DNA of 55,761 nucleotides from an uncultured Elusimicrobia bacterium (lineage in GTDB: Bacteria > Elusimicrobiota > Elusimicrobia > CAZMIB01), in contig CAZMIB010000002.1 in NCBI GenBank assembly GCA_964566245.1, forward strand, positions 1-55,761, in the 5' to 3' direction. Positions 45,427 through 53,428 of the stretch are shown here, piece after piece. Under the pieces are notes generated by a model, which had not been told where the DNA came from, searched no databases, and was given only the letters and a program-made list of their open reading frames with translations. Within the stretch, counting starts at the first letter, position 1. Each line of letters starts with the position of its first letter. The position numbers were made by a program, and so were the translations under genes.

Positions 45427-47259
45427 CTATTCGGTCAAAGGCGGCAAAATCTTGCGGCTGCCGCGGCTTTTCGCGGCCAAAGTCACGTACTCCCGGGTCT
45501 CCTCGTCGGTCGCGGCGCCGGCCTTGATCTTGGCGTCCAGCGCCATGCGCCGCGCCTCGTCCTTATGCCCGTTCCATCGGCGCGCCAAATCCGCGAGCGC
45601 GCGCTCGGCGCCCTGCTTCGCCCCGTCGCCTTCCTCGGAGACCAGATCCTTCTCATCCACGAGCAGCCGGCTCACCCATGGGGCGTCCTCCTGCGGGAGC
45701 TTCTCCCACAGGCGCTTGGTCCAGGCCGGCGACTCCCATGAAACCTCGCCGACCAGCTCCGCGAGCGACGAGGCGACGCGGCGGCAGCGAGCGTCGCTCA
45801 GTTGATCCAGGGCGACCGGCAGCGGCTTGGCGAGCAGGAACGGATGGCGGAGGAGGAGATGGACGATCTCCTCCTCGACGCCTGTCCGACCGCCGGCCGC
45901 TGCGGGAGCGGGGGCCGGGCTCCCCTGCTCCCGCCTATTAGACGCTCGAGGGGCCGATAAAGTTCCGGCCTTCGCCCGCTCCAGCTCCAAATTCAGCGCT
46001 CCCTCGTCCAGCTTCAACGTCTGGGCCAAACGCTTGACCCTTTCCTGCCTCAAAATCGGGTTCGACTCCTTCGCGACGACGCGCAGCACCTCGCTAGCCA
46101 GACGCGCCCTGTCCTCGACCGTATTATGCGGCCGGCGCCTCAAGGCCAGTTCGGTCTGGAACTGCGCCAGATCCACCGCGCCGTCCAGCACCTGCTGAAA
46201 CGCCTCCTTCCCGCGCCCGTGCAGCAGTTCGTCCGGGTCGAGGCCGTCCGGGACGGTCGCGATGCGCGTGACCATGCCGCTTTCAAGCAACAGCTCGGCC
46301 GAGCGCAGCGAGGCCGAGGACCCCGCGTTGTCCGGGTCGAAAACGATCACCGCGTCCTCGACGTAGCGCTTGAGGCTTCCGACCTGCTCCGGCGTCAACG
46401 CGGTGCCGAGCGGGGCGACCGCGTTCTCGAAGCCGAACTGGTGCGCCGCCATCACGTCCACGTAGCCCTCGCAAATCAAAACCTTCTTCTCGCGCCGAAG
46501 GACCGGCCCGCCGTGAAAAAGCCCGTACAGCATCTTTCCCTTCGAGAACAGCGGCGTCTCGGGGCTGTTCAGGTACTTCGGCTCCTGGTCGCCCAGCACG
46601 CGCCCACCGAAGCCCGCGACCTCGCCGCGCGCGTTGCGTATCGGGAAAAGCAGCCGCGCCCAAAAATAGTCGCGGTAGCGGCCCGCGCCCTCGCGGAGGG
46701 CGGCCAAGCCGGCCGTCTTCAAAATCTCGGGACCGAAGCCTTTCTTCGCCGCCGCCTCGAGGAACGTCGAGCCACCCGAGAGCGCGAACCCCAGCTCGAA
46801 ACGCTCCTCGATCTCGGGGCTGATCTTCCGGCGCCGCAGGTATTTCCTCGCCGGCTCGGCCTCCGGCGCCGTCTTAAGAACCCGCCGATAAAAGCCGACC
46901 GCGAAGTCGAGCGCCGCCTTGACCTGCTCGCGCTCCTTCTCGCGCGGGCCGAGCGTCTCGACCCGCTTCCAGGCCACGCCCGCGCGCTCCGCGAGGCGCT
47001 CCGCGGCCTCGGGGAAGCTCAGGTTCTCGATCTTCATCACGAACCCGAACACGTCCCCGCCCGACTGACAGCCAAAGCAGTACCAGGCCTGCTTCTCCGG
47101 GCTGACCGTGAACGACGGCGTCTTTTCCTGGTGGAACGGGCAGCAGGCCTTGAAGTGCCGGCCCGCCTGCTTCAAGCCGGGAACATATTCGCGGACGAGG
47201 TCGACCACGTCGAGCTTGTCCCGGACGGACTCCACCACCTCGGGCGGAATCATCGGCAA
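45427..47259 (-). CDS. dnaG: DNA primase
   Basis: 610 aa. Zn-ribbon [13 protein letters not shown]....Q.W.CFGC. TOPRIM EGY.DV. Positioned between rpsU and rpoD. Confidence 0.95.
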
Positions 47260-47267
47260 ACCTCGCC

Positions 47268-47300
47268 CTTCCCTCTCCCCCCGAGGGGGGAGAGGGGAAG
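47268..47300. repeat. REP-like element forming a long GC hairpin between rpsU and dnaG
   Basis: CTTCCCTCTCCCCCC-GA-GGGGGGAGAGGGGAAG, with flanks GCCCTT/AAGGGC extending the stem. Lies in the 91-nt rpsU-dnaG spacer. Confidence 0.65.
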
Positions 47301-47350
47301 GGCAAGTTCCATCGAGTCGGTTATGATCAACTTAACCTGGACGTCGGACC

Positions 47351-47545
47351 TCAGACGCGCTTCCGGCGCTGACGACGCGCCTTTCTGCGAGCCTCTTGTT
47401 GCTTCAGTTTGCGCCTCAAGCTGGGCGCGAGGTAGTACTCCCGACGCTTGATCTCCTTGAGGATGCCGTTCCGCTCGCACTCCCGCTTAAAGCGGCGCAG
47501 CGCCTCCTCGATGGACTCTCCGTCGCGAATCTTGACGAAAACCAT
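47351..47545 (-). CDS. rpsU: 30S ribosomal protein S21
   Basis: 64 aa. ESIEEALRRFKRECERNGILKEIKRREYY..PS. Confidence 0.95.
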   Translation of the reverse strand: MVFVKIRDGESIEEALRRFKRECERNGILKEIKRREYYLAPSLRRKLKQQEARRKARRQRRKRV

Positions 47546-47579
47546 TCAGCCGTTCACCCGCCTCTTTGTCCGGAGTGGC

Positions 47580-47921
47580 CTATCCCGGCGGCCAGTTCAT
47601 CGAGCGCCCGCCGAGCACGTGGAAATGGACGTGGTCGACGCTCTGCCCGGCCTGGCGGCCGTTGTTCATCACGACGCGAAAGCCTTTATCCAGCTTGTAC
47701 TTTTTCGCCAGATCCCGCGCGACGAGCAACAGCTTGCCCAGCAATCCGGCCTGGGCCGGCTCGGCCTCGCTCAAGGCCGGGATGTGCGCGCGCGGAACGA
47801 TCAGCAAATGCACCGGCGCCTGCGGATTGATGTCCGAGATCGCGAAGACCTCGGGCTCGTCGTGGACGATCTTGGCCGGCAACTCGCCCGCCGCGATCCG
47901 GCAGAAAACGCACGTGCTCAT
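47580..47921 (-). CDS. HIT-family (HinT-like) nucleotide hydrolase
   Basis: 113 aa. CVFCRI; histidine triad HVHFHVLGG. Confidence 0.92.
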   Translation of the reverse strand: MSTCVFCRIAAGELPAKIVHDEPEVFAISDINPQAPVHLLIVPRAHIPALSEAEPAQAGLLGKLLLVARDLAKKYKLDKGFRVVMNNGRQAGQSVDHVHFHVLGGRSMNWPPG

Positions 47922-48007
47922 TCAGCGTTAAAAATTAGTGTAGAAAATAGCGCGCCCACGGCCAGCGCGCCCTGGGCTCGTGAGGAAATCCAACCGGGAC
48001 CTAGCTA

Positions 48008-49255
48008 TTATAACCCAACACCCCGCGTCGACGCAAGCGGCGTCGCGCCCCCCTCCCCGACCTTGGCCCAGACCATGGATCCGGGGGGCGGACGGTCCCC
48101 CTCCAGGCGGACCCGCAGGAAGTTGTCGGCGACGGCCTCCCCCATATCCTCGACCACGACGCGGCGCGTCGCGCCGGCCGAGCGCCGCGCGAAGGCCAGG
48201 CGCAGCGAACGATCCAGCTCGTGCATCCGGCGGGAGCGCTCGATCAAAACCTCGTCGGGCAAGGGCGTCAGCTCGGCGGCGGGGGTGCCGGGCCGTGACG
48301 AGAAACGGAACACGTGCAGCCCGGAGAAACGGTTCCGCTCCAAAAAGCTCATCGAGGCCTCGAAGTCCGCCTCGGTCTCGTTCGGGAAGCCGACCATGAT
48401 ATCGGTGAACAGACCGGCCTCGGGTGAGGCCTTCCAAAGCGCCTCGACGCGCCGCGCGTAGAAGCCGGAGCTGTACCAGCGCTCCATCCCCTTGAGCACG
48501 GTATCGGAGGCCGACTGCAGCGGCAAGTGGAACGACGGGCAAAGCCGGCCCTCCGAGGCGACGAGGATCGCGAGCAGCCTGTCGGTGAGGTCGGTGATCT
48601 CGAGAGAGGAGAGGCGGATCCTGAAATCGCCCGGCAGCGCGCACAGCCGCCGCACGGCCTCCGCGAAGTCGACGCGCCGCCCGTCCTCGTCGACCGAAAG
48701 GTAACGCCCCAGGCGGATGCCGCACAGCACGACCTCGCGATAGCCCGACGCCGCCAGGCCGAGGATTTCCTGACGAAGCTCGGGAAACGGCTTCGACGAC
48801 AACGTCGGGCGTATCGCCGGTATGATGCAGTAGGTGCAGTGCATGTTGCACCCGTCCTGTATCTTCACGAACGCCCGCGCGCGCCCGTTGAAATCCGCGA
48901 CCTTGAACTCGCCCGAGACCGGAGGGCAGCCGAGCAAGGTCGGCAGGTCCGTCTTGTCCGCGTTGCCGACGATGCGCGCGTCGGGAAACTCGCGCCGGAG
49001 CTCCTCGGGAGCCCGCGTCGCGTAGCAGCCCGTCACGACGAGCTGGGCGAGCGGGTTCTCGCGCCGCACGCGCCGCAACAGCTTGAGCGCGTCCCGGTCC
49101 GCCATACGCGTGACCGTGCAGGTGTTGACCAGGCACAGGTCCGCCGAGGCGATCTCCTCGACCGCCTCATGCCCCCCCGCGATCAACTGCTCGCGCAGGG
49201 ACTCGGTCTCGCTCTGGTTGACCCGGCAGCCGAAGGTGAACGTGAAAATCTTCAC
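48008..49255 (-). CDS. mtaB: tRNA t6A37 methylthiotransferase MtaB
   Basis: 415 aa, GTG start. UPF0004 N-domain (FGCRVNQSE, NTCTVT). Radical SAM CNMHCTYCIIP. TRAM-like C-terminus. Confidence 0.9.
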   Translation of the reverse strand: MKIFTFTFGCRVNQSETESLREQLIAGGHEAVEEIASADLCLVNTCTVTRMADRDALKLLRRVRRENPLAQLVVTGCYATRAPEELRREFPDARIVGNADKTDLPTLLGCPPVSGEFKVADFNGRARAFVKIQDGCNMHCTYCIIPAIRPTLSSKPFPELRQEILGLAASGYREVVLCGIRLGRYLSVDEDGRRVDFAEAVRRLCALPGDFRIRLSSLEITDLTDRLLAILVASEGRLCPSFHLPLQSASDTVLKGMERWYSSGFYARRVEALWKASPEAGLFTDIMVGFPNETEADFEASMSFLERNRFSGLHVFRFSSRPGTPAAELTPLPDEVLIERSRRMHELDRSLRLAFARRSAGATRRVVVEDMGEAVADNFLRVRLEGDRPPPGSMVWAKVGEGGATPLASTRGVGL

Positions 49256-49701
49256 GATTCGGGCAAGATTTTCGCCTTATCGGCCGCGGTGATCAAGATG
49301 CTGTTGCGCACGATTTGATCGATCCGGCCCAGGATGTAGTCCGGGAGATCTCCGATGATCTCCGCTTCCCGACACGCAACAAGGTCCTCGATGACCTCTC
49401 TCGAAAATTCATACAGCTCGCGACAATTGATCGCCGTTCGTTTCGGGAAAAATTCCAAGGACTTCGCCTCAAGAATGATGGCGTTCTCCCTAAACATCTT
49501 ATTGCGCTCATAAATATCCAGCTGCGAGGTGGTTATGAAAAAAACGAGTGGGTCGGCCGATACCGGCTCTCTACTGACGACGACGATATACTTCGGCTTG
49601 GTGACGCCGGTCTTGTCGAAACGGATCGTCGCGCGCAAGACAGTCCCGCGACGGACACGTTTAGCAAATAGCTTTCGAAGCTGATCGGGAGACAGGGACA
49701 C
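49252..49701 (-). CDS. candidate toxin partnered with the Panacea antitoxin; MazF/PemK-like sequence pattern
   Basis: 149 aa, GTG start. RGTVLRATIRFD..G.TKPKYIVVVS....DPLVFFITTSQ......ENAIILE.......KRTAINCRELYEFSREVI....IIGDLPDYILGRI follows the MazF/Kid layout (G.i..v.f...K.RP.vvvs...v.v.piTs....S.v.c.q...i....l..iG.l). Stop overlaps the mtaB GTG (GTGA). AT-richer than the flanks. Confidence 0.5.
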   Translation of the reverse strand: MSLSPDQLRKLFAKRVRRGTVLRATIRFDKTGVTKPKYIVVVSREPVSADPLVFFITTSQLDIYERNKMFRENAIILEAKSLEFFPKRTAINCRELYEFSREVIEDLVACREAEIIGDLPDYILGRIDQIVRNSILITAADKAKILPES

Positions 49702-50290
49702 GGGAAAATGCCGCCATCACTTCGGCTTTATCCCGCTGCTCAGCCTCCGCGAGGTCGACGATGCCTTCGACGGCCTCGCGATCGTCTACCGGGAACAACC
49801 TGTAGTCGATCTCCGCGAGCGCCTCCGTTTTCTTCCATGCGGCGTGCTTGTGCGTGATATCCACCAGCGCCGAGGGCGCCAAGCGACCGTAATTTTCGAC
49901 CGTCCAGCGCAGCGCATCAACGTCGCTTTGGCTCAAAACATCGGTGCAGGGCTTTTTCCCCAGCGATATGAGCGGATATTTCTTGGACTTGTCCACCTTG
50001 AAGTACTTAGCCAGCGTCTTGCCCTCGACCGCGGGCTTGATGCGCAGCATCAAGTCTTCCTCAAGCTGGTCGATCAGTTCCTTGGAAAGCGAAGGAACGG
50101 GGCCCAACCCCAGTCGAACGTAGCGGTCACCGATGACCGGGCGACCGAAGAGATTGAAGTGTCGCCGGTCGGCCAAGTAGAGAAGCTTCACGAGCTTCAA
50201 CTTGGTCATCGGGCCGCAGGCCTCGATGAAATAGGCCAGCGACGCGATGAATTTATCGAGGCTGAATCGAAACCTCAAGTGTGATCCCAC
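49661..50290 (-). CDS. DUF4065 / Panacea-domain (SocA/PanA-like) antitoxin
   Basis: 209 aa, GTG start. Hallmark MTKLKLVKLLYLADRRHFNLFGRPVIGDRYVRLGLGPVPS. Overlaps the downstream ORF by 41 nt. Confidence 0.8.
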   Translation of the reverse strand: MGSHLRFRFSLDKFIASLAYFIEACGPMTKLKLVKLLYLADRRHFNLFGRPVIGDRYVRLGLGPVPSLSKELIDQLEEDLMLRIKPAVEGKTLAKYFKVDKSKKYPLISLGKKPCTDVLSQSDVDALRWTVENYGRLAPSALVDITHKHAAWKKTEALAEIDYRLFPVDDREAVEGIVDLAEAEQRDKAEVMAAFSRVPVSRSASKAIC

Positions 50291-50346
50291 AAAGGAAGTA
50301 TAGGTCCAGACCAGGAGGAAAGCAATATCGCGGATAACGCTAAGAT

Positions 50347-50355
50347 ATTATACCA
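50347..50355 (-). promoter_or_regulatory. extended -10 (TGGTATAAT) upstream of the Panacea gene
   Basis: The minus strand reads TGGTATAAT (plus-strand ATTATACCA at 50347..50355), about 57 nt upstream of GTG 50290. No clear -35. Confidence 0.35.
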
Positions 50356-50444
50356 AATCAACGTTTACCTGGGACCTCGATTTTCAAACCCGAGGAAATT
50401 GGCCGCCATCTACGAAAGTAGACTGAGCCGTAGACGCAGTGACT

Positions 50445-50843
50445 CTACGCCGGTCTGACCGCGATCTGCGCCACCTTTGCGAAATGGGCGTCCGCGGTGA
50501 GAAGCTCAAGGCCGTGCTGCATCGCGCTGGCGGCGATCCAAATGTCGTTGGTCGGTATCGGAGTCCCCGCCGCTCTCAGGGAGTTCAAGATCAGCGCGTA
50601 TCGACTTGCCGTCTCCTCATTGATTTCCAGTACGCTGACGGAGGGCATCGCCAGGAACTCTCGCAGTTCCCTTTCGTTCTTCTGCCGGTGGCCGCCTCCC
50701 GCGAAGCCGGCCAGCAGCTCCCCGATGACTACGGGGTTGAGGAACAACGCTTCCGCCGATTGAATCGCCTCCTTGGCCGCCTGACCGCCGCGAAAGGCCG
50801 CGGAGTAAGCCGAGGTATCCAGGAGCAGCCGGCTCATGTCCAC
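50445..50843 (-). CDS. vapC: PIN-domain ribonuclease toxin VapC
   Basis: 132 aa. LLDTSAY (Asp1), VIGEL, TNDIWIAA, LLTAD acidic PIN quartet. Confidence 0.9.
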   Translation of the reverse strand: MDMSRLLLDTSAYSAAFRGGQAAKEAIQSAEALFLNPVVIGELLAGFAGGGHRQKNERELREFLAMPSVSVLEINEETASRYALILNSLRAAGTPIPTNDIWIAASAMQHGLELLTADAHFAKVAQIAVRPA

Positions 50844-51088
50844 AACTCGCGGTCGATCTGACGCTGACGCGAGAGCGCTCTATCGAACGAGCGCGCCTCC
50901 TCCGCCGACCAGGAACCGAAAAACCGATCCAGATCGTGATTGAGGGGTTTACGCTTTCTGGAAAGCCCGGTCGCCTGCTCCAAAAGGGCGAGCACGGCGC
51001 CGCTGAGGCTGGTTCCGGCTTCGCGCGCCTTGCGCTCGATCGCTCGGGCCAATTCAGGGGAGAGATGACGCAACGTCAGGGCCTTCAT
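50834..51088 (-). CDS. vapB: VapB-type (RHH / FitA-like) antitoxin
   Basis: 84 aa. LTLRHLSPELARAIERKAREAGTSLSGAVLALLEQA. 10-nt overlap with vapC. Confidence 0.75.
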   Translation of the reverse strand: MKALTLRHLSPELARAIERKAREAGTSLSGAVLALLEQATGLSRKRKPLNHDLDRFFGSWSAEEARSFDRALSRQRQIDRELWT

Positions 51089-51176: not shown

Positions 51177-51650
51177 TCATCTCTTCCTCCCCCGTTTCAA
51201 CTTTGCCGGCTTCTCGAAGAGCTCGACGTCGGCCTTGTCCTTGGAGCGATCCGTGGCGCGCTTGTTCTTCAAGAAGGTGTCCCTGTCGAGGTAAAAGACG
51301 ACATGCTTCCCGAAAGGACCTTCCTGGCGGTTGTTCCAAACCTCCTCGGAGGTCACACCGCTTAGACTGGTCAAGAGGTCGATGCGGACCGGAGGATAGC
51401 CTATCTGGATGATCTTGCCGGACAGAATATCCTCTTTCGTCATGCCCAATGACTCGAACCCGAAGTCTTTCAACGCTCGGATGACCGCCTCGGCGTTGCC
51501 CTCGGTCGGCCTGATCCAGAAATCAATATCGCCGGTCGACCGAGGAAATCCAAGGTATGCGAGAGCGAAAGCTCCGACGATCACGAACTCGACGTCGTTG
51601 CGCTTGAGCGCGACAACGAAATCAGAAAAGGTCTCATTCACCTCGCTCAT
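51177..51650 (-). CDS. minimal nucleotidyltransferase-fold protein (MNT/DUF6036-like)
   Basis: 157 aa. FVIVGAFALAYLGFPRSTGDIDFWI (G[GA]-x9-13-D.D NTase motif). C-terminal KRATDRSKDKADVELF. ATGA overlap with the upstream HTH gene. Confidence 0.7.
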   Translation of the reverse strand: MSEVNETFSDFVVALKRNDVEFVIVGAFALAYLGFPRSTGDIDFWIRPTEGNAEAVIRALKDFGFESLGMTKEDILSGKIIQIGYPPVRIDLLTSLSGVTSEEVWNNRQEGPFGKHVVFYLDRDTFLKNKRATDRSKDKADVELFEKPAKLKRGRKR

Positions 51651-52357
51651 TCGCGATCCCTCAACTGGATCACGTACTGGAACGGCGGCAGAGTCTCCTT
51701 ACCGGTGGTCAAGTAAGTCTGCCTTCTCAGGAATTCCATGGCGCCGATCCTGGCCTCGATAGGTTGCGCAAGCCAAAACCGGAGGGTATCGCGATCATCC
51801 TCCTTATCGATGATCCGCACCGACATTTGGGCGCGGCGCGGCTTCACGTCCGTCCGATCGTTCACAGCCGAGGCCTCTCCTCGCAAACCAACGTCCTCCC
51901 AAACCTCGGCGGTCGGCCGAGCCATAAGGCGCAGTTCTTCGGAACGCCGGAGTGCTCGGATCATCCGTTCATCCGGCTTCCGTTGCTCCAAGGCCATGGC
52001 CCCGACGACGCGCGCGACCTTGCGGCGCGCCACCTCTTTGATGCGCTGACGCAGCACTTCCCGCGGCGCCTTTTGAAACTTAGGAAGGAAAACCGCCTCG
52101 CAGTTCAAGGCGCGCAGGATTCGCCTGAGGGTGCTAAGCTGAACATCCACTTTCCCGGTCTCGATCTTCGCCAAATGGGACTGCGGCATCTCCGAGCGCC
52201 CGGCGAGTTGCGCCTGGGTCATGTGGAGGGAGTTTCGAATGGTCCGGATGACGATATGAGGGGCAAGCTCCCCCGTGGCCTCGGGGATTTTTTTCCCGTA
52301 GGAAACCAGGCGCTCGACCCTGTATTGCGTGGTGACTGGAAGCTTGTCTCGTCCCAT
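51647..52357 (-). CDS. XRE-family HTH protein with ~130-aa C-terminal extension
   Basis: ATG 52357 preferred (TTG 52417 lies in the AT-rich promoter region). IRNSLHMTQAQLAGRSEMPQSHLAKIETGKVDVQLSTLRRILRAL is a classic XRE HTH. C-terminus ...DRDTLRFWLAQPIEARIGAMEFLRRQ. Confidence 0.75.
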   Translation of the reverse strand: MGRDKLPVTTQYRVERLVSYGKKIPEATGELAPHIVIRTIRNSLHMTQAQLAGRSEMPQSHLAKIETGKVDVQLSTLRRILRALNCEAVFLPKFQKAPREVLRQRIKEVARRKVARVVGAMALEQRKPDERMIRALRRSEELRLMARPTAEVWEDVGLRGEASAVNDRTDVKPRRAQMSVRIIDKEDDRDTLRFWLAQPIEARIGAMEFLRRQTYLTTGKETLPPFQYVIQLRDRE

Positions 52358-52450
52358 GGGATCAGTTACCCCATCCCTTGACCCTCTAATTTTAACCTGT
52401 TTAAGTATATTTATCAAGACATAATTTATATGTTTTTACATATCATACAC

Positions 52451-52981: not shown

Positions 52982-53284
52982 CTAGAAGCGTCGCGGCGGG
53001 AGCTTGGGGTCGAGGACCTTGCGGGCGGCTTCGGCGCCGCAGACCGGCAGGCCGTCCGGCTTCAGAAGGCCGACCTGGGCGAGGACGCCGGCTTGGTCCC
53101 AGTAGATGTGCTCGTGCGAGATTTTCCCGCCCTTGAAGCCGGCGATCACCGGGACGTGGTTGAGATGCGGGTCGTCGGTCATCGTGGCCATCGTGGTCTC
53201 GAGGTCGCCCGCCAGTTCCGCGTCGACGTGACGTTGAAACAGCTCCACCATCGCCTTCCGCGCCGCCGTCAGGTTTTCCGCCAT
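52982..53284 (-). CDS. NTF2-like protein, apparently missing the central part of the fold
   Basis: ATG 53284 preceded by GAGGGGGAG. N-terminal RHVDAELAGDLETTMATMTDDPHLNHVP and C-terminal GGKISHEHIYWDQAGVLAQVGLL motifs of SnoaL-like proteins are only ~10 aa apart. Total 100 aa. Confidence 0.5.
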   Translation of the reverse strand: MAENLTAARKAMVELFQRHVDAELAGDLETTMATMTDDPHLNHVPVIAGFKGGKISHEHIYWDQAGVLAQVGLLKPDGLPVCGAEAARKVLDPKLPPRRF

Positions 53285-53428
53285 GCTTCGCTCCCCCTCG
53301 CTCGCGGCCGTCACGGCGCCGGTCATGCGGGCTTATGAAAACATATTTTTCAAAAAGTTATGAGAGACGTCGACGACGCGATTCTTGGCGATCCGCGGAA
53401 AAACTGATAACGTGGAAGCCTCCCTCCC

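Follow-up and report, generated by a model that had tools for sequence, protein, structure and literature searches.

Several toxin–antitoxin (TA) modules with a Panacea (DUF4065) antitoxin, PanA, carry a PanT toxin that resembles MazF. Kurata et al. 2022 (PNAS), whose clusters were built from RefSeq genomes, list four clusters of MazF-like PanTs in their Dataset S1, namely T5 (WP_076782181.1), T6 (WP_083201923.1), T8 (WP_073354223.1) and T25 (WP_026646888.1) (PMC8832971). The T6 PanT of P. moraviensis and the T25 PanT of B. ruminantium were validated: both are recognised as MazF-like by HHpred only, without a match in CDD, and both showed toxicity, inhibited protein synthesis and could be neutralised by their own PanAs; the T5 PanT of C. 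bovis is toxic as well (PMC8832971). The same study found PanAs in complex with their cognate PanTs, and its cluster T6 includes Endomicrobium, of Elusimicrobia (PMC8832971). Ernits et al. 2023 (PMC10440598) report that neutralisation can proceed via the Panacea globule or via elements added at the N- or C-terminus. Here, we describe a pair of this kind on contig CAZMIB010000002.1 of an uncultured Elusimicrobia bacterium, within an analysed stretch of 55,761 nucleotides (nt) that we call the window. Three consecutive overlapping open reading frames (ORFs) on the minus strand, read directly from the sequence, encode proteins of 209, 149 and 415 amino acids (aa), which we refer to as PanA, PanT and MtaB (Table 1). 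The first two are probably a horizontally acquired type II PanA–PanT module, with a toxin of predicted MazF fold.

The 209-aa protein had been taken for a Panacea antitoxin on the strength of a sequence motif, and profile searches bear this out. PanA, which contains TKLKLVKLLYLADRRHFNLFGRPVIGDRYVRLGLGPVPS, matched the full length of Pfam SocA_Panacea (PF13274; E = 7.4e-18, 66 bits against a cut-off of 25.7, model positions 1-113, residues 33-153), as well as phrog_1281 (4e-19, residues 10-158). A stand-alone Panacea/DUF4065 domain (approximately residues 10-158) is followed by an acidic C-terminal extension, which spans some 55 aa (residues 154-209) and has 12 Asp/Glu against 8 Lys/Arg and an isoelectric point (pI) of 4.6. 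Two residues of this extension, Y163 and F166, are invariant in six PanAs that are 29-68% identical. MazE also has an acidic tail, and by this parallel we lean towards the extension, rather than the Panacea globule, as the part that would neutralise the toxin.

The founding Panacea system, SocAB of Caulobacter, has the SocA_Panacea domain in common with the antitoxin described here. SocB, the toxin of that system, acts by blocking the DnaN clamp, and SocA serves as a ClpXP adaptor (type VI). However, the NCBIfam SocA equivalog model scores PanA of the window at 23 bits, below its cut-off of 190, and SocB is unrelated to the toxin of our pair. Nothing points to a SocAB mechanism in the module of the window.

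The link between the 149-aa ORF and a DUF4065 gene, first suggested by this single locus, holds in homologous loci. A Panacea gene (PF13274) lies directly upstream of the toxin homologue in eight of eight other lineages with enough upstream DNA, at a distance of -50 to +8 nt: -50 in P0004 (an Elusimicrobia metagenome-assembled genome, MAG) and P0003, -4 in P0149, P0157 and P0154, -1 in P0158, +1 in P0090, and +8 in P0092. A further locus, P0002, was left out of this count; it lies on a short contig, where a cut upstream ORF overlaps the toxin gene by 50 nt and gives no Pfam information. The toxins of the eight lineages are 19-72% identical to PanT of the window, and the PanAs diverge in step with them, from 68% identity in close loci to 29-33% in distant ones. 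Each lineage has its own set of flanking genes, among them glycosyltransferases, BipA, IS1595 transposases, a phage integrase together with a restriction-modification enzyme of Type ISP, and Gp49/helix-turn-helix (HTH) genes. No antitoxin of the MazE/PemI/Kis type (AbrB or ribbon-helix-helix, RHH) was found; the upstream protein was a Panacea protein in every locus examined. Since the Panacea gene is upstream in all eight lineages while their contexts are unrelated, the pair of the window is, by sequence comparison, a real and conserved PanA–PanT module that agrees with the published in-silico criteria for PanAT. Among the distant family members, one (L018, JGI 3300075532) lies beside the phage integrase and the Type ISP enzyme, and others (L014 and the P0149 contig) lie beside IS1595 transposases. 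Such neighbourhoods of mobile and defence genes fit a mobile, possibly defence-associated module.

PanT itself had no match in Pfam, NCBIfam, PADLOC or PHROGs and no meaningful phmmer match in the PDB, and weak matches to proteasome-beta and DNA polymerase III psi were discarded as chance. We describe it through its homologues. An exhaustive HMMER search with a four-sequence profile against 1.84 billion cluster representatives (E <= 0.001) recovered 204 clusters (50% identity), which almost without exception measure 140-155 aa and align end to end, and thus form a discrete family. The Pfam and residue counts given here refer to 135 members. Pfam PemK_toxin (PF02452) was matched by 16 of these (best E = 3.5e-6), and no other Pfam family recurs among the 135. 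When the 135-member profile was searched against all PDB sequences, two MazF chains came first (S. aureus MazF, E = 0.007), and nine of the 14 chains listed were MazF, EndoA or PemK, with EndoA, PemK and MazF6 following the leading two and a few unrelated weak matches in between. An hhalign comparison of the family with three sequences (MazF of E. coli, EndoA of B. subtilis, and Kid) gave E = 5e-5 over 98 columns. All 30 members that we sampled are metagenome or MAG proteins named ‘hypothetical’, lack a RefSeq accession, and come from Elusimicrobiota, Omnitrophota and Thermoanaerobaculia (Acidobacteriota). A search of genomes with the four-sequence alignment returned one genome locus, identical to L001, and tblastn found no PanT homologues in plasmid and phage collections.

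The predicted structure of PanT points to the same superfamily. The AlphaFold2 model, which was built on an alignment of 12 sequences (the 12 proteins returned by a profile search of a word-indexed database), has a mean predicted local distance difference test score (pLDDT) of 91.4 and a predicted template-modelling (TM) score (pTM) of 0.85, and shows an SH3-like beta-barrel of MazF topology. When this model was compared with the PDB by Foldseek, MazF accounted for all nine matches with E <= 0.001, and the top 41 were nearly all MazF, Kid, EndoA or MoxT, the exceptions being the type III toxins CptN and ToxN. The leading matches had a probability of 1.00 and target-normalised TM-scores (TMt) of 0.66-0.76. 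In the BFVD viral library, the top structural matches were PemK-like. The MazF/PemK-like fold that the earlier note had proposed from strand order is thus upheld by the predicted structure, the family profile and the viral library, and PanT appears to be a highly divergent representative of the MazF/PemK/Kid fold, an assignment that we make with the same good confidence as that of the module as a whole. To the MazF core, the model adds an N-terminal helix (residues 5-15), which the earlier note did not mention, helical inserts at residues 61-72 and 101-109, and a C-terminal helix (residues 139-145). An extra C-terminal tail had been expected and is present, but it is shorter than the anticipated ~25 aa: it extends about 13-16 aa past the core, contains this one helix, and carries two family-specific conserved positions, Ser134 (113 of 135 members) and Lys142 (108 of 135).

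Inspecting the putative active site revealed that the canonical Arg-Pro dipeptide is absent from PanT, as had been noticed, and that Lys37-Tyr38 takes its place. Both HMMER (on the Arg of S. aureus GGVRP) and hhalign (on R25-P26 of B. subtilis MazF, BsMazF) align these residues with the dipeptide. We take the catalytic pair to be R25 and T48 in BsMazF, and R29 and T52 in E. coli MazF. Thr58 of PanT is placed on BsMazF T48 by hhalign, while the gap-free HMMER alignment is offset by 3 residues there; Thr58 is probably equivalent to the catalytic Thr. Across the family, position 37 is Lys in 113, His in 16 and Arg in 5 of 135 members (84%, 12% and 4%), and position 58 is Thr in 124 (92%) and Ser in 7. 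Gly at position 19 (127 of 135), Ser at 59 (116 of 135) and Thr at 89 (112 of 135) are also conserved. This pattern fits an RNase active site that was modified but preserved, rather than one that has decayed.

CcdB has the same fold as MazF, and the barrel of PanT could in principle belong to a CcdB-like gyrase poison or to a catalytically dead binding protein rather than to an RNase. The K-Y/F in place of the Arg-Pro dipeptide and the lack of a sequence match between PanT of the window and PemK would agree with such a function. Nevertheless, we consider it improbable. The 50 PDB matches listed by Foldseek include MazF, Kid, EndoA and the RNase toxin CptN and no CcdB; the position of the catalytic Arg is strongly restricted to Lys, His or Arg and that of the catalytic Thr is mostly Thr, which is the pattern of a preserved active site; and both validated MazF-like PanTs inhibit translation (PMC8832971). 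With no CcdB among the listed structural matches and the active-site residues kept, a CcdB-like function was rejected in favour of a putative MazF-type RNase.

We next compared the module with its closest relatives. Like the MazF-like PanATs of Kurata et al., it has the Panacea/DUF4065 antitoxin first and the toxin directly downstream; its toxin family is likewise annotated as ‘hypothetical protein’ and recognised as EndoA/PemK/MazF-like by profile and structure methods only; and it behaves as a mobile module with a patchy taxonomic spread. In contrast to those clusters, none of the 30 sampled members comes from a RefSeq isolate, and the close subclade has panA–panT overlaps of 41-50 nt, whereas the sampled rows of Dataset S1 have spacings of -1 to -16 or positive gaps. 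The earlier note had raised the possibility of a new PanT toxin class. This was not sustained, as MazF-like PanTs recognised by HHpred alone are already published and two of them are validated (PMC8832971). The PanT family is at most new as a sequence family within the known MazF-like PanT class, the comparison with T5, T6, T8 and T25 being one of descriptions rather than of sequences.

The canonical MazEF, PemIK and Kis-Kid systems share with our pair the operon order of antitoxin then toxin and, in the predicted structure, the SH3-like barrel, the MazF strand order and the C-terminal helix (the TMt range above was obtained against 5hk0, 4mzp, 4me7, 1ne8 and 1m1f). Like canonical MazF toxins, PanT is basic (pI 9.2) and keeps a Thr at the position of the catalytic one. 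It differs from them in lacking a PF02452 match, in the Lys, His or Arg that its family has in place of the Arg of the Arg-Pro motif, and in being about 33 aa longer than a canonical MazF (~111-116 aa), owing to its terminal helices and two inserts; its antitoxin is a Panacea protein and not of the MazE/AbrB/RHH type. The type III toxins CptN and ToxN are similar to PanT in size (~150-170 aa), and CptN (4rmo) was found at Foldseek rank 15 (E = 1.6e-3). Structurally, however, they lie much further from PanT (TMt 0.46 for CptN and 0.29 for ToxN), and the antitoxin here is a protein rather than a repeat RNA. A search of the whole window (1-55761, both strands) found no Rfam family reaching its gathering threshold, and therefore no RNA antitoxin or riboswitch.

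The module leaves the current understanding of TA systems unchanged. It adds to the MazF superfamily, and to the known partners of Panacea, an unannotated family of 204 clusters from uncultured phyla (Elusimicrobiota, Omnitrophota and Acidobacteriota), and it provides an annotation rule for proteins that are now called ‘hypothetical’ and, in the genome of the window, mis-started. The Lys-for-Arg active site poses a small question for MazF enzymology. A more far-reaching proposal is that the metagenome-only family of ~145-aa proteins represents a distinct MazF-fold variant, in which Lys or His would act as the general acid-base, the C-terminal helix (with Ser134 and Lys142) would serve RNA recognition or PanA docking, and cleavage would follow a new specificity. 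Such a variant would be distinct from T5, T6, T8 and T25, exclusively paired with Panacea, and possibly engaged in phage-triggered defence. We regard this proposal as doubtful.

Following the precedent of Kurata et al. 2022, we propose that PanA is translated first from a common mRNA and that PanT initiates inside the 3' end of panA. PanA would bind PanT directly and neutralise it, through its conserved acidic tail, as in MazE, or through the Panacea globule. Free PanT would act as a ribosome-independent, sequence-specific endoribonuclease and thereby arrest translation, with Lys37 (Lys, His or Arg in the family) taking over from the catalytic Arg and Thr58 retained. RNase activity, toxicity and neutralisation by PanA binding are thus expected by analogy. 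Several observations weigh against this interpretation of the pair. The evidence for the fold comes from a structure predicted on a 12-sequence alignment; PanT of the window has no Pfam PemK match even at E <= 1; and the hhalign probability was just 66%, with a thin template of three sequences. Since the canonical Arg-Pro is missing, a catalytic role for Lys or His is assumed. For PanA, a single-sequence structure model reached a pLDDT of 35 and was not used. Finally, we found no two-hexamer sigma-70 promoter 5' of panA and no convincing Shine-Dalgarno sequence before panA, panT or mtaB.

The boundaries of the two genes required separate attention. The 41-nt overlap between the 209-aa and 149-aa ORFs and the GTGA overlap between the stop codon of the latter and the start of mtaB, both pointed out in the earlier note, are present in the sequence. 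The panA–panT overlap codes for the conserved N-terminus of PanT and the variable tail of PanA. It measures 50 nt in three close panT homologues, PanA of the window ending 9 nt earlier, and distant members of the family have spacings of -4, -1, +1 or +8. The public gene call on this contig instead has a 128-aa toxin, starting from a TTG at Leu22, a 205-aa PanA and no overlap. According to this gene model, the 149-aa ORF would be mis-delimited or no gene at all, and the real product would be the shorter protein; the panT GTG also lacks a clear Shine-Dalgarno sequence in front. We consider this very improbable. Residues 1-21 of PanT are kept in homologues that are 64-72% identical, with MSL(S/P)PDQLRKLF invariant in the three closest (146-149 aa), and the N-terminus can be aligned in many of the distant members as well. 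Four loci share the GTG unchanged, conserved at the DNA level together with the flanking GCGGCATTTTCCCGTGTC, and residues 5-15 form a confidently modelled helix. Based on these three observations, the 128-aa model was rejected, and the GTG-start, 149-aa form of panT is, by homologue conservation, the correct one. The GTG start of panA is backed by alignment with the homologue in L005, whose protein begins MGPP. Judged in this way, both genes are mis-started in the public call, and the longer GTG starts are correct.

The third ORF encodes a housekeeping tRNA ms2t6A methylthiotransferase, which lies outside the TA module and is physically fused to its 3' end. MtaB matched TIGR01579 at 2e-104 (350.2 bits, just below the curated cut-off of 357.05 bits) and TIGR00089, of the MiaB/RimO subfamily, above its cut-off; its best homologues all come from Elusimicrobia MAGs and are at most 62% identical, which points to the phylum of the host. 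Its UPF0004 domain starts at residue 2, and therefore the mtaB GTG start and the GTGA overlap are real. The earlier note had described the TA pair as hard-wired to mtaB, which would make panA, panT and mtaB an integrated unit tied to tRNA ms2t6A37 modification, with the toxin acting, for example, on tRNAs that MtaB has modified, or the module controlling mtaB. In addition to the overlap, this idea could draw on the lack of a terminator between panT and mtaB, on a terminator-like hairpin just past the mtaB stop (47971-47949), and on the lack of room for a 5' region of its own in front of mtaB, whose expression probably depends on the TA operon in this genome.

Comparison with related loci did not support such a unit: the overlap is particular to the genome of the window. 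Six homologous loci include sequence 3' of panT, and in none of them is mtaB found there; the pairs occur without this gene. In related Elusimicrobia, mtaB follows rsmE or another gene: the order is hrcA-grpE-dnaK-dnaJ-rsmE-mtaB-HIT-rpsU-dnaG-rpoD in one relative (L017) and grpE-dnaK-dnaJ-rsmE-x-lipocalin-mtaB in another (L016). Compared with these, the window keeps mtaB-HIT-rpsU-dnaG only (45427-49255), and synteny breaks exactly at the mtaB start codon. PanT of the window also ends with 3-4 residues more than its homologues (…KILPES), which creates the GTGA, and the GC content at third codon positions (GC3) jumps at the junction from 0.67 to 0.90. Since mtaB is absent 3' of the homologous loci, is preceded by rsmE or another gene in relatives, and meets a PanT with extra C-terminal residues, the overlap arose, by these comparisons, through a chance insertion or rearrangement in this genome. 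A functional panAT–mtaB operon was rejected, the junction being confined to the window genome and marked by a sharp change in composition, and it is extremely unlikely that the TA pair is functionally linked to tRNA modification. Co-transcription in this genome is nonetheless plausible, because no terminator separates panT from mtaB and a terminator-like hairpin follows mtaB; coupled translation is plausible as well. The TA island interrupts the conserved dnaJ-rsmE-mtaB order, with the side effect that transcription of mtaB probably starts from the TA operon, to which its translation may be coupled too. The junction thus suggests that a TA insertion can take over the expression of a housekeeping gene, and it provides no evidence of a new functional coupling.

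The composition of the segment agrees with the two remaining proposals of the earlier note, that it is richer in AT than its surroundings and was acquired by transfer. Between 49200 and 50400, GC content drops to 52-59%, from 64-70% in the surrounding DNA, and GC3 is 0.67 in panT and 0.74 in panA, against 0.88-0.90 in mtaB, HIT, dnaG and the SnoaL-like gene. By this contrast, the panAT segment looks horizontally acquired. It is part of an island upstream of mtaB that holds three TA modules (GC3 0.67-0.80, against the same 0.88-0.90): panAT, a VapBC pair, and a pair comprising an HTH_3 protein and a nucleotidyltransferase-like protein (Table 1). The 157-aa partner of the HTH_3 protein has weak nucleotidyltransferase matches (AbiEii at 1e-3, DUF6036 and Aminoglyc_resit), and the pair may be an HTH/nucleotidyltransferase TA or an Abi-like pair. 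SnoaL-like and YfhO-like genes lie past the island.

The company of these modules raises the question of whether panAT acts primarily in anti-phage abortive infection, with Panacea sensing a phage cue and releasing the MazF-like RNase, a role that is compatible with the TA mechanism proposed above. In addition to the island itself, the family member next to the phage integrase and Type ISP gene, and others near IS1595 transposases and other TA genes, would suit such a role. On the other hand, neither PanA nor PanT matched any PADLOC model, no homologues were found by tblastn in the phage or plasmid collections, and TA islands also arise without a defence role. We regard a primary role in defence as possible but unlikely, and describe the pair as a TA module.

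Table 1 Features of the panAT locus and the adjoining TA island (window coordinates).
Feature	Position	Strand	Basis or remark
panA (PanA antitoxin, 209 aa, GTG start)	49661-50290	-	PF13274 Panacea/DUF4065
panT (toxin, 149 aa, GTG start)	49252-49701	-	MazF/PemK-like predicted fold; family profile
Overlap of panA 3' end and panT 5' end (41 nt, out-of-frame)	49661-49701	-	Read from sequence
GTGA junction: panT TGA (49254-49252) overlaps mtaB GTG (49255-49253)	49252-49255	-	Read from sequence
mtaB (415 aa, GTG start)	48008-49255	-	TIGR01579, TIGR00089, UPF0004
Intergenic region 5' of panA (154 nt, 46% GC)	50291-50444	-	Sequence read
VapBC-type pair	50445-51088	-	Directly upstream of panA; genes overlapping 10 nt
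PIN-domain toxin (132 aa)	50445-50843	-	PF01850 at 1e-19
RHH/FitA-like antitoxin (84 aa)	50834-51088	-	VapBC pair
HTH_3/nucleotidyltransferase-like pair	51177-52417	-	Genes overlapping 4 nt
HTH_3 protein (256 aa)	51647-52417	-	Third module

We also searched the region 5' of panA for regulatory signals. For an operator or inverted repeat, this returned just a weak 13-nt palindrome with 77% complementarity, for which we make no claim. A candidate extended -10-like element, TGgTATAAT, lies at 50355-50347, about 57 nt 5' of the panA GTG, and was not flagged by the two-hexamer scan. A promoter-like site was observed at 51145-51117, by the VapBC pair. Further along, between the SnoaL-like and YfhO-like membrane protein genes, the minus strand contains a 114-aa ORF (52982-53326) with no Pfam match.

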